Below, piece after piece: positions 1-60,879 of a DNA stretch of 64,000 nt; positions within the stretch are counted from its first letter, which is position 1, and every line of letters begins with the position of its first letter. The DNA comes from Candidatus Methanomethylicia archaeon (GTDB lineage Archaea; Thermoproteota; Methanomethylicia; Culexarchaeales; Culexarchaeaceae). Where the stretch lies: assembly GCA_038727515.1 (NCBI GenBank), contig JAVYVS010000001.1:160001-224000 (forward strand). Reading direction: 5' to 3'. Both the position numbers and the translations under genes were made by a program. Under the pieces are notes generated by a model. The model was not told where the DNA came from and did not search any database. It saw nothing but the letters and a program-made list of their open reading frames with translations.

Positions 1-2
1 AA

Positions 3-38018: not shown

Positions 38019-39035
38019 TTATGATTGTGTTAATTCATCTATTAATTTATTGTATATTTCTATGGCTTCTTCTTCACTTTTTACTCCTTTTATTATCATT
38101 CTTCCATTCTTGAATATGCTTACATCCTTTTCATCATATTTTATTGCTATCATAATTTCCGTTGATATTTTTATTTGGTATCGTTTAGATAGTTTTTCTC
38201 TAATTTCCTTTATGTTTATCTTCACTGGTTTTATTGGATTTACATTTATCGTGTTTCTTCCACATAGCCATGTTATTTTTGGTTGTGTTATTTCTATTTC
38301 GGTTTTTTGTTTGCATACTGGACAATTCTCTCTTTTGCTTATGTTTATTTTGTGGAATTCCATGGTTTTGAAATCACATACTAATAGTTTTCCCTTTAAT
38401 CCATTTTCTATTCCTGCTATTAGTTTTATTGCTTCCATTGCTTCTATGGATCCAATTATTCCTGGTGTTGCCCCTATTACTCCTCTTGTTTCACATGTGG
38501 GTATTAGGTTGTCATCTATTTTTGGGAATATGCATTCTAGGCATGGTGTTTCTGGTGGATGTATTACTGTTATATTTCCTTCTAATCCTATTGCTCCTGC
38601 GAATATGTATGGAATATTCTTTTTAACGCTTACTCTATTTATTATATATCTTGTAGTCATATTGTCGAGTCCATCCACTATAACGTCTACACCATCTAAG
38701 AGCTCTTCTGCATTTAATTGGTTTAAGTGTTCTGGTATTGGTTCTACTTTTACTTGTGGATTCATTTTTGATAGTTTTCTTGCTGCTACTTCAACTTTTG
38801 GTTGACCAATTTCACTTGGATCGTATAGTATTTGTCTATGTAGATTGTGTTCTTCAATTATGTCGTGATCTATTATTCTTATATGTCCGATTCCTGCTAA
38901 GGTTAGGTATATTGATGCTATGCTTCCAAGTCCTCCAATTCCTACAATAGCCACTTTTGCTTTCATTAATTTTCTTTGTCCTTCAATTCCAAGTTCTCTT
39001 AATGCTATCTGCCTTGAATAATATTCACTTATCAT
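38019..39035 (-). CDS. HesA/MoeB/ThiF family E1-like adenylyltransferase with C-terminal extension
   Basis: YSRQ, GIGGLG, D.....NLHRQ, D.LDN, PCLEC, CPVC. Confidence 0.93.
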   Translation of the reverse strand: MISEYYSRQIALRELGIEGQRKLMKAKVAIVGIGGLGSIASIYLTLAGIGHIRIIDHDIIEEHNLHRQILYDPSEIGQPKVEVAARKLSKMNPQVKVEPIPEHLNQLNAEELLDGVDVIVDGLDNMTTRYIINRVSVKKNIPYIFAGAIGLEGNITVIHPPETPCLECIFPKIDDNLIPTCETRGVIGATPGIIGSIEAMEAIKLIAGIENGLKGKLLVCDFKTMEFHKINISKRENCPVCKQKTEIEITQPKITWLCGRNTINVNPIKPVKINIKEIREKLSKRYQIKISTEIMIAIKYDEKDVSIFKNGRMIIKGVKSEEEAIEIYNKLIDELTQS

Positions 39036-41541: not shown

Positions 41542-42234
41542 TTATTTGCTTTTCTTCATGTAATCTAATGCTACTGCCACTACTAATGCTATTGCTGCTA
41601 TTACACATACGTATGGAGCTGGGTATGTGAAGTATAGGAATCTTATTCTCCCAATGAATAATGAAATTCTACTCATAATTGTTAATCCGAAGCTTCCTCC
41701 AAACCCTGCTACAAGAGTGTATCTACCAATTTTAGCCACAGTGTTTAATGGTCCTTTAAATTCTGCTGTGAAGTAGAAGTAGAATAATGCTGTTAATACT
41801 CCTATTGCCACTAATACTCCATCCAATGGCTTTGGTAGTAGGACTACTGTAGTTGTAGATTCACTTATTGTGGATCTAATTTGTTCAAGGAATTGCGTTT
41901 TTATGTATCTTGCCACTATTGTTCCAATGCTTGTTCCTAATACTATGGCTGTTGGATACCTGTATAGGTAGAAGTATTTTCTTGTGAAGAAGAAAATGTA
42001 TAGTAATCCAATTGGTACTGTTAGCCACCACCACCATTGCCCTTTAGAAACATAATCATAGAGGTATACCCATGCTGTGTCTACACTTATTAGTGTTGTA
42101 TATGCTGCAGCGGCACCCATGTATGCATGTTCTGCAATTCTGAAAAACCTATTTTCCTTGTAAAGCCAACTGAATAACATTAACGTTATTCCAGCGGCAA
42201 CTATCGTTACTATAGTATCCATACTTAGGGACAT
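41542..42234 (-). CDS. Uncharacterised multi-pass membrane protein (gene 4 of DUF6754-type module)
   Basis: About 7 TM, apparent internal two-fold repeat; paralog of 269..991. Confidence 0.88.
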   Translation of the reverse strand: MSLSMDTIVTIVAAGITLMLFSWLYKENRFFRIAEHAYMGAAAAYTTLISVDTAWVYLYDYVSKGQWWWWLTVPIGLLYIFFFTRKYFYLYRYPTAIVLGTSIGTIVARYIKTQFLEQIRSTISESTTTVVLLPKPLDGVLVAIGVLTALFYFYFTAEFKGPLNTVAKIGRYTLVAGFGGSFGLTIMSRISLFIGRIRFLYFTYPAPYVCVIAAIALVVAVALDYMKKSK

Positions 42235-43098
42235 TTACATCCTCCTCCTAGATAGGAAGTATCCTATATTCCCAATTATTATGAAGATTACCGTTACTAG
42301 ATGTCCTAGGGATTGAGCATCCATTCCTGCTGCACCTTCTCCAGGTCTTTTAACTAGGATCTCGTATTCTGCTGCACCTCTCAATCCATTACAGAATCCA
42401 ACTATTTTATCTGGGTAGTATGGGTACATTCTTGAGACTAGTACTGCTCCTACAGCTCCACCAACTTTTGTTCCATAGACATCTGTGAGTTGTCTAACAA
42501 CCCAGTCTACTGAGCTGTTTCCGAAGTATATTGCTATTGCCCAATCTTTTGCTGTTCCTGTGGGTAGGTCTTGGAAGAATGGCATTTTCTTTAAATCATT
42601 GCCATATGCATCTTTACCTGTATAGAATACGTCTGCTGCTAATGCTGCTAATCCAACCTCATATTGTGGTATATATCCTAAATTAACATATTTCTTTCCA
42701 TAGTCTGGATGATCATTTGAAGCTCCTAAAATTGTTTTCATGGTTGATTCTATATATGGTACAGCTTCTGTTCGTGCTGCAAAGAATAAAACCCTTAAAC
42801 CTTTATTTACACAGTGTTGGAAAATTGCAAGTTCTGAGGGGTAGCATTCTGCTGCTGCAGCTGGGCTTTGATCATCTATAAATACTACTATGCTTCCTGG
42901 TGGAAGTTTATCTAGGAAGTTGTATAATCCAAGTGTTTCTGCACTATATTTTCCAAGGGGGATTCCTATTGGCCTCAGTATTGGTACGCTTACTGCTATC
43001 CAAACTAATAGGTATATATATCTTACATCTATGTTTTGTATTTTCTCCCATATTGTTTCTGGTTTTTTACTCTCCACGACCCATCCACCCCCTCTCAT
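42235..43098 (-). CDS. Uncharacterised protein: N-terminal TM, alpha/beta domain, C-terminal TM (gene 3 of module)
   Basis: R.IYL....V..P...P.G.P, YG..YVNLGY, G...GL.GAAEYE, MDAQS..H. Confidence 0.88.
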   Translation of the reverse strand: MRGGGWVVESKKPETIWEKIQNIDVRYIYLLVWIAVSVPILRPIGIPLGKYSAETLGLYNFLDKLPPGSIVVFIDDQSPAAAAECYPSELAIFQHCVNKGLRVLFFAARTEAVPYIESTMKTILGASNDHPDYGKKYVNLGYIPQYEVGLAALAADVFYTGKDAYGNDLKKMPFFQDLPTGTAKDWAIAIYFGNSSVDWVVRQLTDVYGTKVGGAVGAVLVSRMYPYYPDKIVGFCNGLRGAAEYEILVKRPGEGAAGMDAQSLGHLVTVIFIIIGNIGYFLSRRRM

Positions 43099-43726
43099 AT
43101 CCTAAGAGCATTCGTACATATAGTGCTAAAGTGGCCAGTAATCCTGATATTATTATAACTCTTGCTTCTGCTCTAACCCAAACGTTATTTACCCAATCTT
43201 TTAGCGGCACGAATCCAGGCCATATGAGTTCTCCTATTGGTGCATTTCCAAGCATTGCTATTATTCCAGCTAATAATAGTACTGTTGCTTCTACACTTCT
43301 AGCTCTAAAGGCTCTGTAGGCTGCTGAAGCTATGAAGAATACTAGTATAGAGTATATTGTCGAATCTCCTGGTGCTACTATTGCATTGAATACTTGAGTT
43401 ATGCTTGGTTCTACTGATGGTTTTATCCCTTGGAATGCATATCTAGCTAATCCCCATACTAATGGTACCCATAAGCATATGAGTAATACCCAGCTTTCAA
43501 TTCTTTTAGGTTCTCTTTGGATCCTCCTTGCGTGAATCCTGGTTAATAGTGTTACTGAAATTATTGCTGCAAAAGTTCCAATTATTGCCTGTGCCTTCCT
43601 AATATCTGCTGCCAGATTATTTATTGTTGGTTGTAGTACAAGTGTATCCATTGCTGTTATAAATGTTAAGATTACCATAATCATCCATGGTATATATCTT
43701 CTAATGACTATTGACATTTCATTCAT
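43067..43726 (-). CDS. Uncharacterised multi-pass membrane protein (gene 2 of module)
   Basis: YSIL.FFIASAAYRAFRARS.EAT.LL.AG...MLG..P.G motif; about 6 TM. Confidence 0.88.
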   Translation of the reverse strand: MNEMSIVIRRYIPWMIMVILTFITAMDTLVLQPTINNLAADIRKAQAIIGTFAAIISVTLLTRIHARRIQREPKRIESWVLLICLWVPLVWGLARYAFQGIKPSVEPSITQVFNAIVAPGDSTIYSILVFFIASAAYRAFRARSVEATVLLLAGIIAMLGNAPIGELIWPGFVPLKDWVNNVWVRAEARVIIISGLLATLALYVRMLLGYERGWMGRGE

Positions 43727-43730
43727 CCCC

Positions 43731-44567
43731 CTATATATTTAATAGATCATAAAACCATCTATTTCCAAATGCCCAGAATATTAATCCAATTATTGTTAAT
43801 GCTAATCCAATTAGCCTTATAATGTCTTGTCCAAATATTGTCCCTATTTGTTCTGGCGTTCCTGCAACATAAGCTCCTGCAGTTATTAATTCTTCACTTA
43901 TTAATGTGTAGTCGCATGTGGCTATGAAGAATGGTATTTGATAGCTATTTGTTGTTCCAGCTATTTGTATTGCTCCAGCTCTAAATCCTGCTTCAGCTAA
44001 TATTAGTGATTCCGCTGCGAAGTATCCAAGTAATAGGTTTGCAGCAACTTTTTCTCTAAGTATTAATCCCATGGCTCCACTGGCGTATGCAAATTGCCTA
44101 TTGGAGAGCCATATAACATTTTCAGGTCTAAATTCATCTGGTTTTCCAGCCATTGTATATGCATTTTTAATTAAGTCTCTGGCAACTGGTTCTACTGTTG
44201 GATCTGAAAATGTAAATAGGAATCTAACACCATATTCTGCACATTTTTTAGCTACGTATTGGCATATACTTAATCCTGCAATGACCTGTGTATCTCCAAC
44301 TCCACCTAAACCAACTGTGTAATGTACTGGTCTACCCATTTCAGTGGCTCTGCCTATCGCTTCATCCAGGGCATCCATCCCTGGAAGTTTCCTAATTTTT
44401 GGTTTAATTACACCCTTCTTTGTAAAGTAGACCGCTAGGAATATTATGATTATTGAAGCAATGAACATCACTGTGGAACCAATATAGGTAGACCTAATAC
44501 TTAAACTCATGTATGACTCTCTCCTTAAAACTTTTTCAAAAATGTAGTTCTCGTATATTTTTCTCAA
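43731..44567 (-). CDS. DUF6754-like protein (gene 1 of module)
   Basis: IR.LPG.DA.DEAIGRATEMGRPV, QFAY, G.F.AESL..AE.G...GA.QIAGT....QIPFF..TCDYTLI.EE...AGAY; true start probably ATG 44510. Confidence 0.85.
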   Translation of the reverse strand: MRKIYENYIFEKVLRRESYMSLSIRSTYIGSTVMFIASIIIIFLAVYFTKKGVIKPKIRKLPGMDALDEAIGRATEMGRPVHYTVGLGGVGDTQVIAGLSICQYVAKKCAEYGVRFLFTFSDPTVEPVARDLIKNAYTMAGKPDEFRPENVIWLSNRQFAYASGAMGLILREKVAANLLLGYFAAESLILAEAGFRAGAIQIAGTTNSYQIPFFIATCDYTLISEELITAGAYVAGTPEQIGTIFGQDIIRLIGLALTIIGLIFWAFGNRWFYDLLNI

Positions 44568-44636
44568 CTAATAGCTATTTATATTTTTCCTAAATTTTTC
44601 AAATTTTTTTCAATGAAAAGTTTAAATGAGTAAATT

Positions 44637-45508: not shown

Positions 45509-47857
45509 TTGGATAAATTGGCTGGGGCTTTTAAGGTTAGGGTTGTTGGGATTGTTCAGGGGGTTGGCTTTAGACCATTCATATATAGGCTTGCCAAGAG
45601 GCTTGGTTTAAGGGGGTATGTGGTGAATCTTGGGGGTAGTGAAGTTGAGATTCACGTTGAAGGTGTTGATAGGGTTGGGCTGGAAAGATTTCTGGAGGCT
45701 ATGGAGAGGGAGAAGCCTCCGAGAACGGTGATAGAGAGGATAATGGTAATAGAGGTAGACTCAGAGGGGTACATGGACTTTAAAATACTGGAGAGTAAGG
45801 GGGAGATTGCATCTAGAAGCATGATTCCACCAGACACATCCATATGCGATGACTGTGTAAAGGAGATTCTAGACCCAAACAATAATGGTAGATTCTATGG
45901 GTATCACTGGAATAGCTGCGCATGGTGTGGACCTAGATTCTCCATGATGTATAGAACACCCTACGACCGTGAAAACACCTCCATGGGGAAATTCAAGCTT
46001 TGCAGTGAATGCGCTAAAAGCTACAGTGACCCCGAGGATCTAAGGAGGTTTCATGGGCAGGGGATAAGCTGCTTGAAATGTGGACCTAAAACCCATGTTT
46101 ATGGTATGGATGGATTGAGGATTGAGGTTGAGGATCCAGTGGAATTCGCTGTAAAGGTGATTTTGGAGGGTGGATTCATAGCTTTAAAGGGTGTAGGTGG
46201 ATTCCACATTGCATGTTTAGCTTCAAGGGATGATGTGGTGGCTGAATTGAGGAGGAGGAAGAAGAGGCCTCAGCAGCCCTTTGCATTGATGGCTAGAGAT
46301 TGGAGTGTGGTTTTAAGGCTTGTGGATCCACCTTTAGAGGCTAGAGGGCTTTTGGAGGGTCCACGGAAGCCTATACTAGTACTCCCCAAAAAATTGGGTG
46401 CACCAGTTTCAGAGCTTGTTGCACCTGGACTCTCCACCCTCGGGGTTATGCTCCCCTACACCGGCTTCCAAACCCTACTTTTAAATGGGATTCCAGAAGG
46501 CTTCCTAATTATGACTAGTGGGAATAGGAGTGGGAGACCTATGTGTACAAGTCTTGGCGAAGCTCTTGTAGAGCTTCGTGGAATAGTGGATTACATTGTG
46601 GATCATGAGAGGGAGATCGTGCATAGAGTGGATGATAGCGTGTTAAGGTTTACTGATGGTAGACCAGTCTTCCTCAGGAGGGGGAGGGGTTATGCTCCTG
46701 AATGGGTGGAGGTAGGCTTCAGAATCGTGGAGGCAGCGGCTGTGGGAGGTGAACTTCAAAGTGTGGGTGGAGTTGGATTTGAGGATAAGATTGTTTTAAC
46801 ACAGTTCATTGGGGATGTGGATGAACCAGCCCAGCTATGGAGTTTAGAACGTGAATTAAAATGGCTTATAGAGGTTTATGGGCTTAAACCTAGGATAATA
46901 GCCTTAGATATGCATCCACAATACTCCAATAGGCTGGTGGCGGAAAGGCTAGGTGAAACTTATGGTGCTAGGCTAATTGAAGTTCAACATCACCATGCCC
47001 ATGCAGCCACTGTAATAGGCGAATTAAAGGCTGAATCAAGCGAGAGGTTTATGGCTATAACCATTGATGGAACCGGATATGGTGAGGGAGGGGAAATCTG
47101 GGGTGGAGAAATACTATTGGCATCCCTGGAAAGCTATAAGCGTGTGGGAAGCATAAAACCCTTCACACTGCCAGGTGGAGATACAGCTGCAAGACACCCA
47201 GCAAAAACATTGGTAAGCCTATTAGCCTCAAATGGATACAGTGAGGAAGAAACCATTGAAATCCTATATAGACATGGAGTCATAGATGGATTCCCCCATG
47301 GAATAATAGAGGCGAAACTAACCCATAGATTAGCAGCCTCCAAAAGAGGATTTAAAACCTCAAGTCTAGGCAGGATTCTAGACGCCTTCTCCACACTCCT
47401 AGGAGCATGCAAAGAGAGAACCTATGAGGGGGAGCCAGCAATAAAACTTGAAGCCCTCGCAGACAATGTAAACCAGCCACCCATAGACCAAGAACCAAGA
47501 ATAACCATGGGTGAAAACAGACTCCTAATAGATGTAAAACCCCTATTGGAATGGACACTGGAAAACCTCAACACCATAGAAAAGGGTAGAATAGCCTTAA
47601 CCATACAATACAACCTCGGAAAAACCCTGGCGAAAACAGTCCTAGAAGCCTTAAAGGGGAGGAGAAACATTAGAAGAGAAGTAATAGTAAGTGGAGGAGC
47701 AGCAGTAAACACCCACATAATCAAAGGAATAAAAAGTATACTGAGAAAAGAAGGACTAGAGGTAATCCTACCATCAAAAACACCACCAGGAGACGGAGGA
47801 ATAGCCCTAGGACAAATACTAGTTGCATCTAGTGTAAACTTCAAATCCCAAATTTAA
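45509..47857 (+). CDS. hypF: Hydrogenase maturation carbamoyltransferase HypF
   Basis: G.VQGVGFRPF, two CxxC-CxxC zinc fingers, KG.GGFH, MTSGN, QHHHAH, DGTGYG, GDGG.ALGQ; TATA-like TTTAAAT at 45482. Confidence 0.97.
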   Translation: MDKLAGAFKVRVVGIVQGVGFRPFIYRLAKRLGLRGYVVNLGGSEVEIHVEGVDRVGLERFLEAMEREKPPRTVIERIMVIEVDSEGYMDFKILESKGEIASRSMIPPDTSICDDCVKEILDPNNNGRFYGYHWNSCAWCGPRFSMMYRTPYDRENTSMGKFKLCSECAKSYSDPEDLRRFHGQGISCLKCGPKTHVYGMDGLRIEVEDPVEFAVKVILEGGFIALKGVGGFHIACLASRDDVVAELRRRKKRPQQPFALMARDWSVVLRLVDPPLEARGLLEGPRKPILVLPKKLGAPVSELVAPGLSTLGVMLPYTGFQTLLLNGIPEGFLIMTSGNRSGRPMCTSLGEALVELRGIVDYIVDHEREIVHRVDDSVLRFTDGRPVFLRRGRGYAPEWVEVGFRIVEAAAVGGELQSVGGVGFEDKIVLTQFIGDVDEPAQLWSLERELKWLIEVYGLKPRIIALDMHPQYSNRLVAERLGETYGARLIEVQHHHAHAATVIGELKAESSERFMAITIDGTGYGEGGEIWGGEILLASLESYKRVGSIKPFTLPGGDTAARHPAKTLVSLLASNGYSEEETIEILYRHGVIDGFPHGIIEAKLTHRLAASKRGFKTSSLGRILDAFSTLLGACKERTYEGEPAIKLEALADNVNQPPIDQEPRITMGENRLLIDVKPLLEWTLENLNTIEKGRIALTIQYNLGKTLAKTVLEALKGRRNIRREVIVSGGAAVNTHIIKGIKSILRKEGLEVILPSKTPPGDGGIALGQILVASSVNFKSQI

Positions 47858-48685
47858 AATGTCAGAATCAAGATCTAGAGGGCCAATAGCACCAGTATTC
47901 TCAGAGCTAAACCGCCCGAAACTTTCAGAACCAGGCTGCCAGAAACAAACACTTTGAAAGAGAAACTCACAATATTCACTTCCACGAGAAACACATTCAA
48001 CCTCACACCCATACAAACTCTTCCCAAGAAACCTACTAAACCACCCCTCAAGAAAACCTAAAATGAAAGATGACCCCCTAAACCCCTTAAGACCCCTACA
48101 AACTCTACACTCAATGGAATCATAAACCCTAACCTGCAGAAAACCAAGCTCAAGATCCACCTTCACAAGCTCAAGAGAACCAAACCCCAACCCACTAAAA
48201 AACGTAGACCCCACACTAAAAACAAGGTTGAAACTCCCCTGACCCACAAAACTAAGACAATAATCATGAAACTTACAGCCCATCTCAAAACCTATACTAT
48301 AGGAGACGGCAGGCGCAGTCACATTAAGAGTCTTAAACAAACCCTCAAACAAACTCTTAAACAAACCTCCAGTAAGAATCACATTCCTACCATCCAAAAC
48401 CTCCCAATAATAATCTTCAAAATAAACCTTGAAAACACCCTCAAAACTCCTCTTCAACCTATCCCTAACCTCATCAACAAAACCATTCAAATCACCATTA
48501 AACCCATCAAAACTAAGCAAAACCCCAACATAACTAGAATCACCCACACGAAAAGAATTTAAACCCAAAACCCTAACACCCTTAGAAGAAAGAAACTGCA
48601 AAACACTGGAAACACCATTAAAATCACGAATCAAATCACCTGGAATCATCATCTTAACAATCTTAACACTACCATCAACCTGCAT
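47819..48685 (-). CDS. V4R domain protein with ACT-like N-terminal region
   Basis: GLGFG, DS.EC, F..GFL.G, E.EC.S.G..YCEF; 3' end overlaps hypF by 39 nt. Confidence 0.85.
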   Translation of the reverse strand: MQVDGSVKIVKMMIPGDLIRDFNGVSSVLQFLSSKGVRVLGLNSFRVGDSSYVGVLLSFDGFNGDLNGFVDEVRDRLKRSFEGVFKVYFEDYYWEVLDGRNVILTGGLFKSLFEGLFKTLNVTAPAVSYSIGFEMGCKFHDYCLSFVGQGSFNLVFSVGSTFFSGLGFGSLELVKVDLELGFLQVRVYDSIECRVCRGLKGFRGSSFILGFLEGWFSRFLGKSLYGCEVECVSRGSEYCEFLFQSVCFWQPGSESFGRFSSENTGAIGPLDLDSDILNLGFEVYTRCN

Positions 48686-48815
48686 GTAAAACGCTATATA
48701 AAAACATTTAAGAAACTTATGAATGAGAAATCTAAAACCATGTTCAGAACAAAAATCTATACCAAAAATTCACAAACAATTTAAAACAAGCATAAAAATA
48801 CATAAACGACCAACC

Positions 48816-49481
48816 ATGAAAATAGGTAGAAATAAAAGGGGAATGATTGGAATAGAAGCAGCAATAATACTAATAGCCTTCGTAATAGTGGCATCAGCCT
48901 TCAGCTACATGGTAATCAGCATGGGGCTCGCATCCACACAAAGAGGAAAAGAAACCATAACCTCAAGCCTACAAGAAGTCTTAAGCCCACTAATCATAGA
49001 CGGATCCATAACCATAAAAACCGAAAACCAAAAGGTAACCGGCATAATAATCCCACTAAAAGTTTCAGGAGTATCATATGTACCCATGGGAGCCAATAGA
49101 ACCGTAGTCACACTAAAAATCAAATACGCAGACACATCAAAAGACCCAGTATCATACCCAAACATATATGTAGGAGTAAACACAACCATTGACCCAGCAA
49201 AAACAGGTTTCACAGACATCCTTGATGGTCTCAAATTCAAATACAAGGACAATGGTATAAATGCAACCGCCCAACTATTCCTAGAGGAAAACAATAAGGA
49301 TGACGCCTTCGACTTCTTTGAAAAGGGATACCTAGTAATAAAATTAGATCCCAGCCTAGATTTAACCTCTAGATGCGAAGTATACATTGAAGTTAGACCT
49401 GAAAAAGGAGCCCCACTCACAATAAACTTCATAATACCAGCAAACCTACCCACAGGAAACCACTACATAACAGTAGTATAA
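48816..49481 (+). CDS. arlB: Archaellin
   Basis: Class III signal peptide KRG|MIGIEAAIILIAFVIVAS; C-terminal EVRPE.GAP; start at ATG 48816. Confidence 0.95.
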   Translation: MKIGRNKRGMIGIEAAIILIAFVIVASAFSYMVISMGLASTQRGKETITSSLQEVLSPLIIDGSITIKTENQKVTGIIIPLKVSGVSYVPMGANRTVVTLKIKYADTSKDPVSYPNIYVGVNTTIDPAKTGFTDILDGLKFKYKDNGINATAQLFLEENNKDDAFDFFEKGYLVIKLDPSLDLTSRCEVYIEVRPEKGAPLTINFIIPANLPTGNHYITVV

Positions 49482-49546
49482 ACCACACCCTAAACCCTAC
49501 ACATTTTTTTAAACCTTAACAAACATTTATTATTTATGGGTGGGGG

Positions 49547-50176
49547 ATGAAAATGGCGGGAAACGAGAAAGAAACCAGAGACAAAGAAATAGAAGAATTA
49601 AAGAAAACAGTGGAATCACTAAAGGAAGCCATAATGGACATTAGAACCACATTAAGCGAACTGGAAAACCCCTTCAACCTACTAAAATCCATAACTGATA
49701 TAGCCCCAAACATAATAAAACAGGGGGAAGAAACAAGCCAACCAAAACCAGAACCAAAAGAGAATGAAATAGAAGAGAAACCTGAAACCAAGAAGATAGA
49801 GGAAAAACCAATAGAAAAACCTGCACCACCACAACAGCCCCCAACACCAATGAGCACAACCTTCGGCTTCAACCTACTCAAATGGGCATGGATACTAATG
49901 GATGCGGGAATGAGCAAAGAAGACATCATGTCCATAACAAAATACTGTGAACTAGTGGGATACCTACCAAAAAACTCAAGCACACTAATAGAATACGCCC
50001 TAGACCCCATGTACAAAGCAAGACTTGGAGGATTAAACTATGATGAATTCACCCTAATAATATATAATGCAGCCAGAGCAGCAGGAGTAAACATTAGAAT
50101 AGAAAGCCTAGAGGAAATGGCCTTCAACCTACTAAGAAAAATACTCAAGAAGATAGAATATGAAGAGCATAGGTGA
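49547..50176 (+). CDS. Archaellum accessory protein, ArlC/D/E-like (soluble; coiled coil, low-complexity linker, helical C-domain)
   Basis: Coiled coil ending ENPF, Pro/Glu/Lys linker, LLKW..LM..G...I..Y...VGY; located between arlB and arlG; no TM helix. Confidence 0.6.
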   Translation: MKMAGNEKETRDKEIEELKKTVESLKEAIMDIRTTLSELENPFNLLKSITDIAPNIIKQGEETSQPKPEPKENEIEEKPETKKIEEKPIEKPAPPQQPPTPMSTTFGFNLLKWAWILMDAGMSKEDIMSITKYCELVGYLPKNSSTLIEYALDPMYKARLGGLNYDEFTLIIYNAARAAGVNIRIESLEEMAFNLLRKILKKIEYEEHR

Positions 50177-50664
50177 AATCCATGGGCTTTTCCACCACAT
50201 ACACTGAACTCATAATACTAATGGCATCCATAATACTAGCCACCACAGCCTCCACATACATCATATACATGTCAAACAACATCCAAACAAGCATAATGCA
50301 AATCACACAGGAAACAAGCAAATCACTAAACACGAGAATAGAAATAGTATACGCCACCATCATGAACGGCACAGAACAAGGATACAAAATCTATGCAAAA
50401 AACATAGGGCTAATAGCAATACACCAATACGAGGAAATAGACGTATACATAGGACCATATGGACAAGCAAAATACTATCGATACTCAAAAACCCCACAGG
50501 AAAACACCTTCACAATAATAGATGCAGATCAAGATGGAACATGGGAAATATGGGAAACCGCAGAAATAAAGGTATACACAACCCCCACAACCAATGGAAC
50601 AATAGAAGTAAGAATAAAACCATTAAATGGGCCCACAGCCACCTACATATTCACACCCCCATAA
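50173..50664 (+). CDS. arlG: Archaellum protein ArlG (FlaG)
   Basis: S....ELI...ASI.LA anchor, T.IEI, YAKNIG, WE..ET. Confidence 0.85.
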   Translation: MKSMGFSTTYTELIILMASIILATTASTYIIYMSNNIQTSIMQITQETSKSLNTRIEIVYATIMNGTEQGYKIYAKNIGLIAIHQYEEIDVYIGPYGQAKYYRYSKTPQENTFTIIDADQDGTWEIWETAEIKVYTTPTTNGTIEVRIKPLNGPTATYIFTPP

Positions 50665-50676
50665 GGGGGGAAATAA

Positions 50677-51177
50677 ATGGGGATATCAACACCCATAACC
50701 ACCATAATACTATCCACCATAATAATCCTCACCATAACCACCACCTATCACACCCTCCTCACACAATCCACCACCATCATACAAAACCAGTTAAACACCA
50801 ACATAGAAAATAGAAACACAATACTAACAATAGAAAACGTACAAATACAAGAGAGAAGCATAACCCTAAAACTTAGAAACATAGCTGGAAACCCCATAAT
50901 ATTTGGAGGAGAAACATACAAATGGTGCAGCTTCATAATCTCATACAAAAGCCAAAATGAATGGGTAACAACACTAATAGAAAACTACACCATAACGAAA
51001 ATAGAAATCACAGGAACCAGCATAACCACAACAAACACAACACTAAACCCCGGGCAAGAAGCCACCATCACCATCAACATACCCCCCACCAACCCACCAA
51101 TACCCCCAAACACCATAGTAAAAATAGTATTCACAACAAACAATGGGGTAAAAACAACCTATGTAGGGGCGAGGTAA
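50677..51177 (+). CDS. arlF: Archaellum protein ArlF (FlaF)
   Basis: MG.S TM anchor, L.N.G, LNPGQ, TNNG; position between arlG and arlH. Confidence 0.82.
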   Translation: MGISTPITTIILSTIIILTITTTYHTLLTQSTTIIQNQLNTNIENRNTILTIENVQIQERSITLKLRNIAGNPIIFGGETYKWCSFIISYKSQNEWVTTLIENYTITKIEITGTSITTTNTTLNPGQEATITINIPPTNPPIPPNTIVKIVFTTNNGVKTTYVGAR

Positions 51178-51888
51178 ATGGCCACCACAAAACTAATCCC
51201 CCTCACCATACCAGAACTAAACAAAGCCTTTGGAGGTGGAATACCAATCCCCAGCCTAATATCCATAGAAGGAGACCATGGAAGCGGAAAAACAGTAATC
51301 TCACAACACATACTCTACAGCATGGTGAAAAACGGGATAGAAGCCATAGTAATAACAACAGAAACCACAACAAAGGAATATGTAAAAATGATGCAAACAA
51401 TAAAACTAGATGTAACCAGGGAATACATAAAAGGCAAACTAAAAGTATACTCACTACACATAAGAGAAGGAGCCTGGAGCAAAGAACTAGCACCATACTT
51501 CCTACAAGCCCTAACAAGATTCCTAGAATCAAAAAACACATATGACAAATGCATACTAATAGACGACCTAAGCAACCTAGCACTAAACGTAGACAACATA
51601 AAACTATTAACCTTCATCACAAGAATAAGAAACCTAATCACCACAGGAAAAACCGTAATACTCACCTTCCACCCAAACTTCATAGACCAAGAAATAACAA
51701 GAGTAGTAAAAGCATCCAGCGAAATATACCTAACACTAGAAAGCAAAGTAGTAGGAGGACTCTCCATAAAAACCCTAAAAATAATAAAACTGTGGGGAAG
51801 CAAAGGGGAAAGAACACCCATAATAAACCTAGAAATAAACCCCACACTGGGATTAAGAGTCCTACCCATAGGAGAAGTATCCATATGA
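51178..51888 (+). CDS. arlH: Archaellum ATP-binding protein ArlH (FlaH)
   Basis: EL...GGGIP, GDHGSGKT, IDDLS, TFHP. Confidence 0.93.
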   Translation: MATTKLIPLTIPELNKAFGGGIPIPSLISIEGDHGSGKTVISQHILYSMVKNGIEAIVITTETTTKEYVKMMQTIKLDVTREYIKGKLKVYSLHIREGAWSKELAPYFLQALTRFLESKNTYDKCILIDDLSNLALNVDNIKLLTFITRIRNLITTGKTVILTFHPNFIDQEITRVVKASSEIYLTLESKVVGGLSIKTLKIIKLWGSKGERTPIINLEINPTLGLRVLPIGEVSI

Positions 51889-53537
51889 AGATAACCCAAA
51901 TCATAAAAACCACAAGAAAAAGAGAACAAGAGAAAAACATAGAAGTAAAAACACCATTAGACACGAAAATACCAGAAAAAATGGAAGACGCCATAAGAGA
52001 AAACCCACACCTAGAAGAATACCTAAAAAAACTAGGATCAAAACCAATCTACACACTAAAAATAGACCCCATAAAAACCATGGATAAAGAGATAATAATA
52101 CCACTACCACAAAGAATATTCATACACATAAACCCAGAGAAAAGAACCTACAAAATAATAGAACCAGAAAAACCATCACCAGAAATCATGGAGAAAATAG
52201 AGACAGCACTAGCCAGGATAATAGCGGAAAAAGACATACAAGTAACCACAGAAAACAAGATAAAAATAATAATGGAACTCCTCCCACAAGCCATAAGAAA
52301 AGCAAAAATAAAGGTAGACAAGAGAAGAGAAGAAGAACTATTATACCACATGCTAAGAGAAAAAGTTGGATACGGATTCCTAGACCCCTTCCTACTAGAC
52401 GAAAACCTAGAAGATATAAGCATACCAGGAGCAGGAAACATCTTCGTATACCATAGAGCATATGGATACCTAGAATCAAACATACACGTAGAAAAAAGCG
52501 AGATAGATAGAGTACTAAGAAGCATGGCTGAAAGACATGGAAAAATAATAAGCCACGTAAACCCAATACTAGACATACACCTACCAGATGGAAGCCGACT
52601 AAACATAGTATTCGGAGAAGACATAAGCCTACATGGAAGCAACTTCACCATAAGAAAATTCGCAAAAGAACCACTATCCATCGCACAACTAGTAAGGGGA
52701 AACACACTCACAGCAGAAATGGCAGCATACATGTGGATGCTAATAGAAGTCGGAGTATCCATGTTCATATGCGGAGAAACAGCCTCTGGAAAAACCACAA
52801 CCCTAAACGCACTACTATCCTTCATACCCTACTACAACAAAGTGGTAAGCATAGAAGAAACACCAGAAGTAAGACTACCACACAAAAACTGGGTTAGAGA
52901 AGTAACGAGACTACACACTGGAAGCCCAGTAACCATGTTCGACCTAGTAAAAGCAGCCCTAAGACAGAGACCAGACTACATAATAGTAGGAGAAATAAGA
53001 GGAGAAGAAGGGAGAATAGCCTTCCAAGCCATAAACACCGGACACCCCGTAGTCTCCACATTCCACGCAGGAACACTAACACAACTATTCCAAAGATTAA
53101 CCTCAGACCCAATAAACGTACCAAAATCACAAATAGACGGATTAAACATAACCATATTCCAAGCAAGAATAGAGAGAAATGGGAAATTCATAAGGAGAGT
53201 AACCACAGTAAACGAAATACTGGGATACAATGTAAAAACCGGAAACCTCATGTACATCCCCACATACATATACGACCCAGACGCAGACAAGCTAAGCAGC
53301 ACCGGAATAAGCTACCTACTAGAATCAAAAGTTCTACCAGCAAGAGGATGGAGCAGAGAACAACTACCAAAACTATACGAAGAACTATCAAAAAGAGCAG
53401 AAATAATAAGATGGCACAGCCAAAATGCGCCAAGATACCTAGACCTCTGGAAAACTGTAATCGAAGTAAACACCCTAGGCGTAGACCAAGTATATGAGAG
53501 AATCATGAGAGGCGAAAAACCATGGAGAGAAGACTAA
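51885..53537 (+). CDS. arlI: Archaellum motor ATPase ArlI (FlaI)
   Basis: G.G.LDPFL.D..LEDIS, FTIRKF, GETASGKTT, ALRQRPD.IIVGEIRG, TGH....TFHA; start at ATG 51885. Confidence 0.95.
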   Translation: MKITQIIKTTRKREQEKNIEVKTPLDTKIPEKMEDAIRENPHLEEYLKKLGSKPIYTLKIDPIKTMDKEIIIPLPQRIFIHINPEKRTYKIIEPEKPSPEIMEKIETALARIIAEKDIQVTTENKIKIIMELLPQAIRKAKIKVDKRREEELLYHMLREKVGYGFLDPFLLDENLEDISIPGAGNIFVYHRAYGYLESNIHVEKSEIDRVLRSMAERHGKIISHVNPILDIHLPDGSRLNIVFGEDISLHGSNFTIRKFAKEPLSIAQLVRGNTLTAEMAAYMWMLIEVGVSMFICGETASGKTTTLNALLSFIPYYNKVVSIEETPEVRLPHKNWVREVTRLHTGSPVTMFDLVKAALRQRPDYIIVGEIRGEEGRIAFQAINTGHPVVSTFHAGTLTQLFQRLTSDPINVPKSQIDGLNITIFQARIERNGKFIRRVTTVNEILGYNVKTGNLMYIPTYIYDPDADKLSSTGISYLLESKVLPARGWSREQLPKLYEELSKRAEIIRWHSQNAPRYLDLWKTVIEVNTLGVDQVYERIMRGEKPWRED

Positions 53538-55072
53538 CCACAATCATACTAATAGCATCAATAACCCCAATCATAATACTAATACACTATGGAAACCAGC
53601 TACTCACAGTAATCTACACAATCATACCAGCATCTATAGCAACCATAACAATAATAAACAGAATGAGTAAAAACATTGGGAAAATGGATATAAAACTTGC
53701 ACTAGCCATCACACACATGTACACACTATCACTAGGACAAACAGAACCAAGAACACTAATAGAATGCATATCACAATCAGATGAATACAAGGAGTATAGG
53801 AAAATCTTCAACACCATACTAAACCTAGCAATAAACCTAGCACAAGGATTAACAAAAGCCATCTCACAAGTAGCAGAAATGGTGAAACCACCATTAAAGG
53901 ATATATTGATAAGAATGGTGGAAGCCTTCTCCACCACAAAACCAAGAGACTACCTAGAACTGGAACACTCAACCATCATGGAAGAATACATGAGCTACCT
54001 AAACAGGACAATAGAAACCATAAGGCTACTTGGAGGAGTATATGGAACCTTCCAAAGCGTAGCCATCCTAATAATCTTAGTAACCATAACCATGAGCATA
54101 TTCCTCATAGACCCACAAACCATAATCCTCTCCTACATAGTATCAGCAACATCCACAATAGTAATACTACTAGCAATAAAACTAGTAACGCCAAGGGACA
54201 TCATGGTATACGCAGGAAAAGACTCCCCACCACACCAAACAGTTAGATATGCAGCCATAATACTAATTCCAACATCAATAATAATATTCATCACAATACA
54301 ATTAACAATAAAAATATCGGCAATAGCCTTCATATCAAGTGGATTAACCATCGCCATAACCGGATACATAGCTAGAAAACTAGAAAAGAAAGTGGCAAAA
54401 TACGATGAATACTATCCCACACTAATAAAAACAATAGGGGAAAACCTCTCAACAACACTAAACCCAAAAAGCGCATTAATATACTCAACACACGTACACC
54501 TAGGCCCACTAAAGAAACACGTTGAACACACCATAAGCTGGATAAACCTAGGATTAGACATAGAAAAATCCTTTAAACTCATGGCAGAAGAAACAGCCTC
54601 CCACACCATAAGAATAATGAATAAAATGCTCATAGACAGCATAAGAGTAGGAGCACCACCAATACAAGTAACAAAAACCATAGCAGACACAACCATAAAA
54701 ATCCTAGAAACAAGAAAGAGGAGAATAGCGACAGCAAGAGGAATGGAAGCCATAATACTAATGATGCACCCCATAACCATCCTAATACTAGCATCCATAA
54801 CCAACATACTAGATAAATTCACAAGACTAATCCCACCCACACAATACATAACACTAAACCCAATACCCACAAACATGATCAACCTTGGAAACATCATACT
54901 AATCTACACACTATCCATAATCAACGCTGCAACCATGACCATAGTTAGAGGAGGCTACCAATGGAGGATAACCCTAAACATAGCCATACTACTAATAATA
55001 AGCGGAATAATGCTCATAGCCTCAGACATAATCACCAACCGCCTACTACCCCCAATAACAATACCAATCTAA
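53522..55072 (+). CDS. arlJ: Archaellum membrane platform protein ArlJ (FlaJ)
   Basis: Multi-TM with two T2SSF-like cytoplasmic domains; follows arlI. Confidence 0.88.
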   Translation: MERRLTTIILIASITPIIILIHYGNQLLTVIYTIIPASIATITIINRMSKNIGKMDIKLALAITHMYTLSLGQTEPRTLIECISQSDEYKEYRKIFNTILNLAINLAQGLTKAISQVAEMVKPPLKDILIRMVEAFSTTKPRDYLELEHSTIMEEYMSYLNRTIETIRLLGGVYGTFQSVAILIILVTITMSIFLIDPQTIILSYIVSATSTIVILLAIKLVTPRDIMVYAGKDSPPHQTVRYAAIILIPTSIIIFITIQLTIKISAIAFISSGLTIAITGYIARKLEKKVAKYDEYYPTLIKTIGENLSTTLNPKSALIYSTHVHLGPLKKHVEHTISWINLGLDIEKSFKLMAEETASHTIRIMNKMLIDSIRVGAPPIQVTKTIADTTIKILETRKRRIATARGMEAIILMMHPITILILASITNILDKFTRLIPPTQYITLNPIPTNMINLGNIILIYTLSIINAATMTIVRGGYQWRITLNIAILLIISGIMLIASDIITNRLLPPITIPI

Positions 55073-55151
55073 AGGTGATGAAAAATGTTAAAAATAAAAC
55101 TAGACATAAATATTAAAGAACGTTAAAACGAGTTGCCTCCATAAACAACAT

Positions 55152-55475
55152 ATGGGGGCATTCAACATGTCCACAGACAGAATAAAAAACTTCATGAAAA
55201 GAAGAGACAGAATAACAATATACATAAGCATCCTAGAATCAATAATGGAATGCTCCTCAAAAAACGCAACTGGATACGCAAAATTCACACATGTAATGTA
55301 TAGATCAAACCTATCCTCACAAAGACTAAAAGAAAGACTACAAGAACTCTCATACCTAGACCTAATAACATGGGACAACCTAGGAATAAAACTAACACAC
55401 AAAGGAAAAAACTTCCTAGAAGAATACAAAAACCTAATGATAAAAATAGAGAAATACATAAAAATGAGAGATTAA
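55152..55475 (+). CDS. Winged-helix DNA-binding protein
   Basis: RRDR..IY..IL, T.VMY.SNLS...L...L..L, LT.KG..FL. Confidence 0.88.
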   Translation: MGAFNMSTDRIKNFMKRRDRITIYISILESIMECSSKNATGYAKFTHVMYRSNLSSQRLKERLQELSYLDLITWDNLGIKLTHKGKNFLEEYKNLMIKIEKYIKMRD

Positions 55476-55597
55476 ATCAAACAACCACAACCCCCAAATC
55501 ATATACACAATTAAACACTGAAAAACAAGTTAACCCCACAAAACACACCTAAAATTACACCACAAGAAATATATGTATTGAAAGAGATAGCAAAACC

Positions 55598-56299
55598 ATG
55601 AAATACATGAATAAGAAAATAACGGTTCTATCCATATTCATAATAATATTTCTAACGGCGACAACAGCAAACACATGGACAAAACCAAGCGAACAACTAT
55701 TAGTGATTGAATGGTCCCTGGAAAAAACAGGTCAAACCACGGGCAATAGCATACCCCCAGAAGACAATTCCATGACCAACACAAACTATAAACTATTAAA
55801 CTTCTACTGGCATACAACACCAATAAAATACTATGTAAACCCCTCAAACAAATATGGCTTCACAGCCAACCAAGTTGTAAACATAATCATAGCAGCAGCC
55901 AACACCTGGGACAACCAAACCAGTACAACACTCTTCCAATACATGGGCACAACAACAAAAACTGCTGGGAAGAGGGATGGAATCAACGTAATCTCATGGG
56001 GAGCATACAAAACCGGCGTAATAGCAGTCACATACATATGGTATATTGGAGACACCATAATTGAAACAGACACCAAACTAAACACCTACTATAAATGGAG
56101 TTTAAACGGTGAACCTGGAAAAATGGATCTACAAAACATAATGACACACGAATTCGGACACTGGTGTGGACTAGACGACCTATACACAGACCAAGACTAC
56201 TGGTTAACCATGTATGGATACACAGCCCCAGGCGAAACCTATAAACGCAGCCTTGGACTAGGAGACATACTAGGACTACAGGAAAGGTATGGACCTTGA
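55598..56299 (+). CDS. Secreted matrixin-like zinc metalloprotease
   Basis: Signal peptide, DG.N.I.W, HEFGHWCGLDD, Met-turn TMYG. Confidence 0.9.
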   Translation: MKYMNKKITVLSIFIIIFLTATTANTWTKPSEQLLVIEWSLEKTGQTTGNSIPPEDNSMTNTNYKLLNFYWHTTPIKYYVNPSNKYGFTANQVVNIIIAAANTWDNQTSTTLFQYMGTTTKTAGKRDGINVISWGAYKTGVIAVTYIWYIGDTIIETDTKLNTYYKWSLNGEPGKMDLQNIMTHEFGHWCGLDDLYTDQDYWLTMYGYTAPGETYKRSLGLGDILGLQERYGP

Positions 56300-56436
56300 A
56301 AAACAAATTTAAATGCCCAATATGCGGAGAAAACTTCAACCAAATAGGGGAACTAGACAAACACCTCCAAGAAAAACATAAAAGAAGGGTTAAACTGAAA
56401 AAGATGGAACACCCAGAGAAAACCATGAAAACATAA
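56296..56436 (+). CDS. 46-aa C2H2 zinc-finger microprotein
   Basis: TTG start overlapping the protease TGA; MKNKFKCPICGENFNQIGELDKHLQEKH...; not in the ORF track. Confidence 0.75.
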   Translation: MKNKFKCPICGENFNQIGELDKHLQEKHKRRVKLKKMEHPEKTMKT

Positions 56437-56476
56437 ACCAATATATACCTTAATAAACATAATGTTTTAACGGTGA

Positions 56477-57409
56477 ATGAAAACGACCCTACACTTCATA
56501 GATCCAAACAAAATCCACTATAAATGGGATAACAGCCTTAAACCAGCCCTAAAAATAAAACCCGGCGACAGAGTAGTATTCGAACTCAGAGACGTCTCAG
56601 ACAATCAGATAACACCAAACTCCACAGTAGAAGACCTAATCAAACTAGATTGGAATAGGGTATACCCACTCTCAGGACCCATATACATAGAAGGAGCAGA
56701 ACCAGGAGACGCACTAATAGTAAACGTTATAGACATTAAATGTAAAGGTTGGGGCTGGAGCGCCATAATCCCAGGATACGGCCTACTAGAAGAATTCGAT
56801 AAACCATACCTATACATCTGGGATCTAAGCGAAGGAACCTACACCACACTAAACAATAAAGCCTACATACCCCTAAACCCCTTCCCAGGAGTAATGGGAG
56901 TAGCACCAGCAAAACCAGGCCAACACCCAATCATGCCACCAGGACCCCACGGAGGAAACATGGACATAAGAAACCTAACCATAGGCTCCACACTAAAACT
57001 CCCAGTACAAGTGGAGGGAGCACTATTCTCCTGTGGAGACGGCCACGCAGCACAAGGAGATGGAGAAGTATGCGTAACAGCCATAGAAGCACCACTATAC
57101 CTAGTCCTAGAATTCAACCTAGAGAAAAACGCTGAACTAGAATACCCCCAAATAACCACATACATAGAACCAGAATTAGAAGCAGGAGAATACCATGTAA
57201 CCATGGGAATAAGCCCAAACCTAATGGAAGCAGCAAAAACCGCTGTTAGACAAATGATCAAACACCTAACCAGAAAATATGGATTCACAAGAGAAGAAGC
57301 CTACATACTAACAAGCATAACATGCCACCTAAAAATAAGTGAAATAGTGGATAAACCAAACTGGATAGTCACATGCCACCTACCACTACAAATACTCATA
57401 GAAACATAA
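56477..57409 (+). CDS. Acetamidase/formamidase family protein
   Basis: GPIY.EGAEPGD.L, PFPG.MG, HGGNMD, GD.HAAQGDGEV...A.E. Confidence 0.95.
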   Translation: MKTTLHFIDPNKIHYKWDNSLKPALKIKPGDRVVFELRDVSDNQITPNSTVEDLIKLDWNRVYPLSGPIYIEGAEPGDALIVNVIDIKCKGWGWSAIIPGYGLLEEFDKPYLYIWDLSEGTYTTLNNKAYIPLNPFPGVMGVAPAKPGQHPIMPPGPHGGNMDIRNLTIGSTLKLPVQVEGALFSCGDGHAAQGDGEVCVTAIEAPLYLVLEFNLEKNAELEYPQITTYIEPELEAGEYHVTMGISPNLMEAAKTAVRQMIKHLTRKYGFTREEAYILTSITCHLKISEIVDKPNWIVTCHLPLQILIET

Positions 57410-57448
57410 ATAACAATGGGTAAACATAAACTATAATGGTGAACCCCA

Positions 57449-58129
57449 ATGGAAATATTAAAGGGGGAATTAACAGAGAAAGAAATAAAAATCCTATACC
57501 TAGGATACTCAGCAATAATACTTAGAACTAGAAATCACACATTAATCTTCGACCCAGCAAACCTAATTGGGAAAAGAGAAATAGAAGAATTAAAAAATGC
57601 AAGAAACCTAATAACACTATACACCCACGACCACTACGACCATTACGATGAAAAAACACTAAAAGAAATATACAATCAAACACAATGCCCAATAATAATT
57701 GAACCAGCAATGACCATGAAAACAAGCATGATAATACCAAGAGAAAAAATATATCCAGCACAACCAGGAAAAACCATAGAAATCTACGGAGCAAAAATAA
57801 ATGGAATTAAAGGTCTACATAGAGGACCAATAACACTATACCACATAGAAGTAGACAACCTAAAAATATTCCATGGAGGAGACTCAGCATACGTAAAACT
57901 AGAAGGATACAAAGCAGACATAGCCATAACACCCACAGGAGACCCCTCACCCACAGCAAACCCAAAAGACGCATACAACATGATAAAAGACCTAAAACCA
58001 AAAATAGCAATACCCATACATGGATCAACAACACAACACAATGAATTCAAAAAACTAGTGGAAAAGGACATGCCAGAAATAAAAGTGGAATTAATAGAGA
58101 AGGGGAAAACATACACCATAAAAACATAA
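57449..58129 (+). CDS. MBL-fold hydrolase (UlaG/UPF0173-like)
   Basis: THDHYDH, FHGGD, IPIH. Confidence 0.88.
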   Translation: MEILKGELTEKEIKILYLGYSAIILRTRNHTLIFDPANLIGKREIEELKNARNLITLYTHDHYDHYDEKTLKEIYNQTQCPIIIEPAMTMKTSMIIPREKIYPAQPGKTIEIYGAKINGIKGLHRGPITLYHIEVDNLKIFHGGDSAYVKLEGYKADIAITPTGDPSPTANPKDAYNMIKDLKPKIAIPIHGSTTQHNEFKKLVEKDMPEIKVELIEKGKTYTIKT

Positions 58130-58144
58130 TGAAGGGGGATAAAC

Positions 58145-58480
58145 ATGCAGAAACCAACAATAACCATAGAAGAATTCAATAAACTAGACATAAGAGTATG
58201 TAGAGTAATAGAAGCAGAAAGAATACCTGGAAAACAAAAACTACTAAAACTATTGGTAGACCTAGGACCACTAGGAACAAGAACAATAATAGCTGGAGGA
58301 GGAGAACACTACAACCCAGAAGACTACAAGGGAAAACTATTCATAGCCATAATAAATCTACAACCAAAAACCATAGCTGGAATAAAAAGCGAAGGAATGC
58401 TACTAGCAGCAGACCAAAATGGAAAACCAATATGGCTAACAACCATAAGTGAAACACCACCAGGAACCATAATAAGATAA
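58145..58480 (+). CDS. Stand-alone tRNA-binding OB-fold protein (Trbp111/CsaA-like)
   Basis: F.KLDIRV, KLL.L.VDLG, NL.P....G..SEGMLLAA. Confidence 0.92.
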   Translation: MQKPTITIEEFNKLDIRVCRVIEAERIPGKQKLLKLLVDLGPLGTRTIIAGGGEHYNPEDYKGKLFIAIINLQPKTIAGIKSEGMLLAADQNGKPIWLTTISETPPGTIIR

Positions 58481-58497
58481 ACTAAGAGGGAAACCAT

Positions 58498-59361
58498 ATG
58501 GAGATAAAAACCATTGGAGTAATCGGAGCAGGAACCATGGGAAGAGGAATAGCACAAATCTTCGCAGAAAACAAATTCCAAGTATTAATATACGATGTAA
58601 ACCCACAAGCATGCATAGAAGCCATAAACACCATTAAAAAACTATTGGATAGAGCAATAGAGAAAAAGGCTAAAACACCAATAGAAGCAGAAGAAACACT
58701 GAAGAGAATAAGGATATGCAATGAAATAAGAGAAGTAGCGGAAAACTCAGATCTAATAATAGAAGCAGTATACGAAGACATAAACGTGAAAAAAGAAGTT
58801 TTCAGAGAAATAGATAAATACGCAAAACCCAACGCCATAATAGCCTCCAACACATCATCCCTAAGCATAACAGAAATAGCCAACACCACAAAAAACCCAG
58901 CCAGAATACTTGGAATACACTTCTTCAACCCACCACAAATAATGAAGCTAGTGGAAATAGTAAAGGGAGAGAAAACATCCAATGAAACCATTGAAAAAGC
59001 CAAGAAGATAATTGAAGGCATAGGGAAAATACCAGTAGAAGTAATAGATTCACCAGGATTCATAGTAAACAGACTCCTAATACCATTCATAAATGAAGCA
59101 ATAGAACTAGTAGCACAAGGAATAGCAACACCCCACAACATAGATACAGCATGCAAACTAGGATTAAACCACCCCATGGGACCACTAGAACTAGCAGACT
59201 TCATAGGATTAGACATAGTACTAGCCATAATGGAAACCCTACACAATGAAACCAGAGACCCCAAATACCGACCAAGCCCACTACTAAAAAGAATGGTGAG
59301 AGCAGGATTACTCGGCAGAAAAACTGGAAAAGGATTCTATGATTACGGTGAGAAAAAATGA
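58498..59361 (+). CDS. hbd: 3-hydroxybutyryl/3-hydroxyacyl-CoA dehydrogenase
   Basis: GAGTMG.GIA, IEAV.E, SNTSS, HFFNP, PGFIVNR, PMGP, G.KTG.GFY. Confidence 0.95.
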
Positions 59362-60125: not shown

Positions 60126-60126
60126 A

Positions 60127-60828: not shown

Positions 60829-60879
60829 ATACAATCTACACTAGGTAAAAAAGATTTAAACATATGTAAATAAAAACAT

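Follow-up and report, generated by a model that had tools for sequence, protein, structure and literature searches.

A recurrent four-gene DUF6754 module of a Methanomethylicia archaeon as a candidate membrane complex linked to a GlmL-type ATPase

The 64,000 nucleotides analysed here (the window: positions 160,001 to 224,000 of the forward strand of contig JAVYVS010000001.1, from the Candidatus Methanomethylicia archaeon assembly GCA_038727515.1) contain four closely packed genes for membrane proteins, which we call subunits A, B, C and D in gene order. Only A belongs to a catalogued family, DUF6754, and the question raised by the locus is what such a set might do for the cell. A first, sequence-only reading had taken it for an undescribed uptake or sensing system. 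Based on the genes of this genome, its relatives and a range of bacteria, we conclude that A, B, C and D very probably make up one four-subunit membrane complex that is functionally tied to an ATPase set of the GlmL type. We further favour, with a probability of roughly 0.45, a reading in which this complex is the substrate-specific uptake unit of a system with a shared ATPase.

The four open reading frames (ORFs) share one strand and are tightly coupled, as the sequence-only reading had described them. A and B are separated by a 4-nt gap containing GGGGG, B and C overlap, and C and D meet with a 0-nt gap, AGGAGGAGG lying within the last codons of C; the three junctions show translational coupling of the four genes. 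The longest ORF for A (43731-44567) begins at a TTG at 44567. This start is probably not used and the real start is probably the ATG at 44510, since AAGGAG stands about 8 nt upstream of it and alignment with the paralogs starts at the same point.

Subunit A is a full-length member of Pfam family PF20539 (277.8 bits against a gathering cut-off of 27 bits, profile positions 11-254 of 257), so that its earlier assignment to DUF6754 was correct. The Pfam entry catalogues this one subunit and gives it no function; it is silent on the three partners, on the multi-copy layout and on the link to an ATPase described below. For subunits B, C and D neither Pfam nor NCBIfam gave a match with E of 1 or less, and all three stand outside any family. 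For C this concerns a large group, without a Pfam entry: a profile search gave 5648 representative clusters (50% identity) with E of 0.001 or less. Our literature search returned no paper mentioning DUF6754 or tying GlmL-type proteins to membranes.

Comparison with known transporters gave uniformly negative results. The ATP-binding cassette (ABC) ATPase family PF00005 (ABC_tran) has no match in the four module proteins or their immediate neighbours, and the ABC domains of the genome are located away from the module. B, C and D match no ABC permease family (BPD_transp_1/2, ABC2) and no solute-binding family in Pfam or NCBIfam, nor was any match to membrane subunits of the TRAP, TTT, PTS EIIC/EIID, MFS or APC systems found in these databases. 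The initial statement that the four genes hold no ATPase, redox-cofactor or known permease motifs is upheld at the level of Pfam and NCBIfam families. Profiles of all four families searched against the sequences of the PDB gave chance matches only, at E 0.37 or weaker, and Foldseek searches of the PDB with A and C found generic Rossmann proteins only, with TM-scores of at most 0.37. No subunit maps onto a characterised transporter or enzyme by these searches. The nearest ESM Atlas clusters of B and D are all unnamed, the Atlas model of B being poor (pTM 0.43).

What lifts the module above a single curious operon is its recurrence. The source genome (1.59 Mb, 93.6% complete) has eight DUF6754 matches, and tblastn with the four proteins located all four genes, in the order A-B-C-D, at all eight places. 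This eightfold recurrence with kept order marks a gene set far beyond chance. Together the eight modules take up about 1.5% of the genome. Compared pair by pair, the copies have a median identity of 42% in A and 30-33% in B, C and D, and judged by these values they are old. One of them, M5, has its A gene split by a single in-frame TAA (L012:10464-11279; G000:C1:633963-634778, minus strand), either a pseudogene or a sequencing error, with the other three genes intact.

Genomes of the same order carry 3-8 module copies each; the class's other families yielded no DUF6754 match, and across the phylum DUF6754 is rare, being present in 4 of 151 genomes. A pattern scan using one genome per species returned at least 547 relatives of A, and the 80 best loci were analysed. 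These best 80 are all bacterial and span more than ten phyla, among them Bacillota (including Symbiobacterium, with the cultured species S. thermophilum), WOR-3, Poribacteria, Eisenbacteria, Cloacimonadota, Zixibacteria and Planctomycetota. The order A-B-C-D is kept in the 80 loci wherever the contig reaches, which answers the call for a synteny survey that accompanied the first reading; 60 loci hold single sets and several hold two or three in tandem. WOR-3 is particularly rich, with 1-6 module copies in 111 of 121 sampled genomes. In one quick FastTree of A the archaeal copies are not monophyletic and interleave with Bacillota sequences, which hints at old subfamilies or at transfer. A recent lineage-specific expansion was considered as the origin of the eight copies and rejected because of this lack of monophyly in the single tree.

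The link to an ATPase emerged from clustering of the ORFs that flank the 80 loci. Directly after D, about ten Bacillota loci encode a protein of 600-700 aa that matches PF13941 ('MutL', a GlmL-type protein of the ASKHA fold); the same loci have a small protein ahead of A and, also upstream, an RnfC_N-like barrel-sandwich protein. Exactly one such ATPase is present in the source genome, 619 aa long (C1:554304-555725; L097:7924-9783, minus strand), with a PF13941 match of 404 bits (E 9e-121, profile 2-450 of 450) and an extra C-terminal region of about 130 aa that belongs to no family. It is flanked by a 148-aa protein with two transmembrane (TM) segments and by a 384-aa barrel-sandwich/KOW protein. 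There is thus one ATPase set for eight modules, with the ATPase encoded 350 kb from the window module. Directly downstream of the ATPase and its partner lie an M55 D-aminopeptidase and an ornithine/diaminopimelate/arginine (Orn/DAP/Arg) decarboxylase (L097:5855-6694 and 4567-5847, both minus strand; G000:C1:550566-552693).

Presence and absence of the two parts follow each other across lineages. Among relatives of the source organism, ATPase matches above the cut-off are confined to genomes from the DUF6754-bearing order, and in another archaeal family of the phylum 900 bp separate the ATPase from DUF6754. The ATPase is also present in each of four diverse bacterial genomes with the module, usually as a single copy far from the modules. 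The WOR-3 counts are the most extensive: of 121 genomes, 109 have both parts, 10 have neither, two have the module only and none has the ATPase only.

The ATPase resembles, through its full-length PF13941 match, the GlmL/MutL accessory protein of coenzyme-B12 glutamate mutase and the reactivases DdrA/PduG and EutA. It differs from GlmL/MutL in being paired with barrel-sandwich/KOW and two-TM proteins and in having no mutase client. The glutamate mutase E subunit (Met_asp_mut_E) has no match in the 93.6%-complete genome, which leaves the GlmL-like protein without its textbook client, and the only B12-binding domain of the genome is about 413 kb off. A role as reactivase of a cobalamin enzyme was accordingly rejected for this protein, no glutamate mutase having been found. 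Relatives of GlmL, diol-dehydratase reactivase among them, behave like chaperones whose targets are Rossmann-like partner subunits. By analogy, a contact between the ATPase and A is plausible, since the domain of A is predicted to be Rossmann-like as well.

To place the domains of A and C relative to the membrane we used charge distribution and appended domains. In an alignment of 92 sequences, the 12 residues after the first TM segment of A hold 4.3 lysines and arginines compared with 0.8 before it, and in an alignment of 83 sequences the tail after the last TM segment of C holds 3.55. By the positive-inside rule, the A domain would lie in the cytoplasm with both termini outside, and the C domain would lie outside with both termini inside. 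Domain accretions lend independent support to this predicted topology. At least 1300 longer DUF6754 proteins carry BamB-like beta-propeller, PKD, fn3 or Ig-like domains at the N- or C-terminus; long forms of C have insertions within the domain, one with a CARDB domain, and Chloroflexota forms of C have zinc ribbons on the N-terminus. The charged motifs of B (YRAFRAR, GxER) and D (YKEN..R.AEH) sit mostly at the predicted cytoplasmic face.

The bacterial homologues of C show some further variation of build. They include C-C tandem fusions, and in others a hot spot of the outer domain (profile positions ~110-130) has taken up inserts as long as 550 aa; P0124 (630 aa) and P0138 (838 aa) are among these long forms. 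Single-sequence searches for longer or fused forms of C and B found none; a profile search later showed the long forms of C, and no fusion between different subunits was seen among its matches.

AlphaFold2 (AF2) models of A and C, built from the same alignments of 92 and 83 sequences, reached mean confidence (pLDDT) of 94 and 94.5. Each begins with a TM helix and a second helix, continues through six beta-alpha units and closes with a long C-terminal TM helix, so that the single architecture first described for the two proteins (TM segment, alpha/beta domain of ~200 aa, TM segment) is borne out. Wide VIA-align searches with each model returned flat Rossmann-like lists at Z 8-10 with nothing standing out, the neighbours being short-chain dehydrogenases/reductases (SDRs), sirtuins, GT-B halves, RCK/KTN domains, transhydrogenase domain III (dIII) and MT0777. 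Of the 50 best rows, 14 are common to A and C, in a comparison of hit lists rather than of superposed models and for a fold class that is very common. A and C are likely to share a fold class. Their common descent is unproven: profile comparison detects no homology, with an hhalign probability of 0.4% for shallow and 1.9% for deep alignments, and the nearest Atlas folds of C are unnamed C-family clusters only, with no DUF6754 cluster among them.

The RCK/KTN domains (TrkA/KtrA) and transhydrogenase dIII, which score among the top structural matches of A and C (Z 8-10, root-mean-square deviation 3-4 Å over 125-140 residues), are likewise Rossmann-like domains attached to membrane transport proteins. 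They differ in having no sequence similarity to A or C, hundreds of unrelated Rossmann proteins score at the same Z, and the C domain is predicted to be extracytoplasmic, unlike any RCK domain.

These results bear directly on the model put forward by the sequence-only reading, in which the module is a 2+2 secondary transporter or sensor that works on its own, without an ATPase, and has two paralogous ligand-binding domains on one side of the membrane. It has in its favour that A and C have the same order of secondary structure elements and that no ATPase gene lies within or beside the window copy. The domains, however, are predicted on opposite sides of the membrane and would therefore not form a pair of binding domains on one side. 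No homology is detectable between A and C, which had been proposed as possible distant paralogs, or between B and D (profile-profile probability 9% with deep alignments). Nor did hhalign detect the internal duplication suggested for D, the halves of which compare at a probability of 1%; the halves of B show no similarity either. The tight co-occurrence with the GlmL-type ATPase set, which sometimes adjoins the module, speaks against a system that works free of an ATPase. We consider this model very unlikely. What stands of the original proposal is a conserved, syntenic, uncharacterised four-subunit membrane module for which uptake is a reasonable guess; the paired-domain 2+2 layout is not supported. 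The polytopic nature of B and D is also retained, a hydropathy scan giving six segments in B and, by eye, six to seven in D.

Structure prediction of the four subunits together is taken neither for nor against binding. For A+B+C+D, with A as partner, the ipSAE values were 0.75, 0.74 and 0.75. Both partner-swap controls gave 0.00, but the control in which C was replaced gave 0.59, too high for the prediction to carry weight.

Returning to the uptake reading, we propose the following arrangement. The outer domain of C would capture the substrate, in long bacterial forms together with the outer propeller, PKD, fn3 or Ig domains on A, and B and D would form the path through the membrane. The conserved cytoplasmic domain of A would be where the shared ATPase set docks and is coupled. 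Several units would share one such set, in the way that S-components of energy-coupling factor (ECF) transporters share one energising module. This reading is suggested by the eight diverged collinear units with one ATPase set, by the catabolic neighbours and by the small number of classical importers. Conservation was also counted in its favour. The A domain, residues ~32-218, has 56 of its 187 positions (30%) conserved to 90% or more in 92 sequences that range from archaea to over ten phyla of bacteria. In the outer domain of C, residues ~42-253, the figure is 13 of 212 (6%), and the paralogs of this genome have a median identity of 42% in A and 30-33% in B, C and D. This pattern would suit A as a conserved engine and C as a variable receptor.

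The likeness to ECF-type and other ABC importers is by analogy only, and lies in an outward, variable C, two polytopic subunits B and D, and a cytoplasmic coupling subunit A. Group II ECF transporters offer the closest parallel in layout, one ATPase set serving several diverged membrane units as it may do in the module system, where the coupling is inferred. In contrast to these importers, the module system has no match to a P-loop/ABC domain, EcfT, an S-component, BPD_transp or a solute-binding protein, and its associated ATPase has the actin/Hsp70 (ASKHA) fold. To our knowledge, no known primary transporter uses an ATPase of this fold. The further step, that these are substrate-specific four-subunit units of a new primary active transporter class driven by a shared GlmL-type ASKHA ATPase acting on the A domain, is one we put forward tentatively and regard as rather doubtful.

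The gene neighbourhoods of the module offer clues to possible substrates. The eight archaeal copies have mixed neighbours: M28, M20, S49 and S9 peptidases, Amidohydro_3, DUF885 and a D-2-hydroxyacid dehydrogenase, and further ThiDN, CysRS, a radical-SAM protein and a methyltransferase. A genome region rich in peptidases had been part of the initial argument; this loses force, as the eight copies have such varied neighbours, with peptidases or amidohydrolases making up only part of them. Among bacteria, co-directional genes within 250 bp encode four amidohydrolases, zincins and GFO/IDH/MocA oxidoreductases; Poribacteria have xylose-isomerase-like proteins and sulfatases there. Nutrient transporters are commonly found beside catabolic enzymes of such varied kinds. 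The substrates would probably be small catabolic nutrients: for this archaeon and the Bacillota, amides derived from amino acids or peptides, and for the Poribacteria, compounds of the sugar type. A DAP epimerase gene lies convergent with module M1, and module M4 is divergent from Amidohydro_3. With the M55 peptidase and the decarboxylase beyond the ATPase set, the DAP epimerase and Amidohydro_3 make a link to the scavenging of D-amino acids or cell-wall peptides possible.

Classical importers of peptides and amino acids are few in this genome, which has four BPD_transp_1 domains, one or two Peripla_BP_6 and no SBP_bac_5. Peripla_BP_6 is the type of the branched-chain amino-acid binding protein. 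Within the window, beside an ABC ATPase gene (60202-60651), a Peripla_BP_6-like frame at 60880-61284 on the plus strand contains four TAG and two TAA stops; it may be the remnant of an importer gene, or a match in the wrong frame.

The domains appended to A and C, and some of the neighbours, also allow for movement in the opposite direction. Here the module would be a machine for export or cell-surface assembly that moves or anchors a surface polymer, a lipid-linked precursor or a protein outward, the outer domains of C and of long-form A acting on the envelope. The BamB-like propellers, PKD, fn3 and Ig-like domains of long A and the CARDB insert of a C homologue would suit such a role, as would a Wzi-like gene and a glycosyltransferase near some copies and the near-universal presence of the system in WOR-3. 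We nevertheless think it unlikely. Where a small genome has three to eight diverged copies that vary in their outer domains, a diversity of substrates is a better fit than one housekeeping export route; genes for catabolism rather than for polymer synthesis recur nearby; and the system is shared by archaea and bacteria, two groups with unrelated envelopes.

The strong conservation of the A domain raises a different alternative, a membrane enzyme or signalling complex. In it the A domain would catalyse a reaction or bind a nucleotide or metabolite, C would be a sensor for a ligand outside the cell, and the ASKHA protein would be a chaperone or kinase of A instead of a transport motor. Near-invariant residues of A are R54, E57, R152, E167, E173, C199, D200, E206 and E207. 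The 56 conserved positions, the presence of RCK/KTN domains, sirtuins, SDRs and transhydrogenase dIII among the fold neighbours of A, and the established chaperone-like action of GlmL relatives on Rossmann-like partners would all be in keeping with this. Yet A has neither a classical GxGxxG loop nor a known catalytic motif, the module has no output domain or regulator, and two dedicated polytopic subunits with conserved polar residues are unlikely to be mere anchors. On balance this alternative appears improbable.

Several observations weigh against uptake or the ATPase link and temper the confidence we place in them. The neighbourhoods are heterogeneous and each recurrent neighbour is rare (3-7 of 80 loci, some in a single lineage). 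No subunit resembles a known transporter fold, the lists for A and C being flat and Rossmann-like. The enzyme-like conservation of A, with 30% near-invariant positions including Cys, Asp, Glu and Arg, fits catalysis or signalling as well, and machines of the cell surface, of adhesion and of assembly typically bear propeller, PKD, fn3 and CARDB appendages too. Finally, the co-occurrence counts are not phylogenetically independent, although the pattern does recur in unrelated lineages.

The coordinates of the module and of associated features are collected in Table 1. The leader lies between the module and the upstream GDPD gene, and the flanks of the module are unrelated and mostly belong to other transcription units (GDPD, HypF, DAP epimerase, GT2 glycosyltransferase, ThiF and S9 peptidase). 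A second module, M3 (G000:C1:157967-160991, located by tblastn and ORFs), reaches into the start of the window, with its A and B just ahead of it.

Table 1. Features of the window module and of the neighbouring module M3 (positions in the 64,000-nt window; TM, transmembrane)
Feature	Position	Strand	Description
Subunit A (DUF6754)	43731-44510	-	~259 aa; Pfam PF20539, E 9.1e-83; N-terminal TM, predicted cytoplasmic, highly conserved Rossmann-like alpha/beta domain, C-terminal TM
Subunit B	43067-43726	-	219 aa, ~6 TM (ORF and paralogs); conserved SAAYRAFRAR at cytoplasmic end of TM4 and conserved GxER at C-terminus
Subunit C	42235-43098	-	287 aa, or ~280 aa from GTG at 43077; N-terminal TM, predicted extracytoplasmic, variable Rossmann-like domain with GAAEYE motif, C-terminal TM ending RRR
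Subunit D	41542-42234	-	230 aa, ~6-7 TM (ORF and paralogs); conserved LY(K/R)EN..R.AEH cytoplasmic loop and conserved YFxFT
Operon leader, intergenic	44511-44636	-	TATA-like A/T-rich stretch and AAGGAG ribosome-binding site ahead of ATG 44510
Tail of paralogous module M3	1-991	+	End of subunit C (to 272), whole subunit D (269-991)

Two features elsewhere in the window are recorded separately. On the minus strand, 38019-39035 encodes an E1-like protein of the ThiF family (E 1.6e-80). In its C-terminal stretch, residues 271-336 match PF00352, the TBP fold family, narrowly passing the cut-off (E 4e-5); the pairing is unusual. Over ~46000-64000 the AT skew changes sharply from about -0.2/-0.36 to +0.4/+0.5 and the GC content from about 0.32 to 0.36-0.45, a change that coincides with an archaellum-type gene cluster on the plus strand. 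Archaellin, together with other markers, identifies the organism as archaeal.

If the modules are indeed importers driven by an actin-fold ATPase, they would represent a new energy-coupling class in membrane transport. Uptake, if true, may explain how nutrients are imported in uncultured sediment and symbiont lineages that are poor in classical peptide and amino-acid importers. Should the module instead prove to be an exporter, an enzyme or a sensor, it would still be a large, conserved and unstudied membrane system of prokaryotes.

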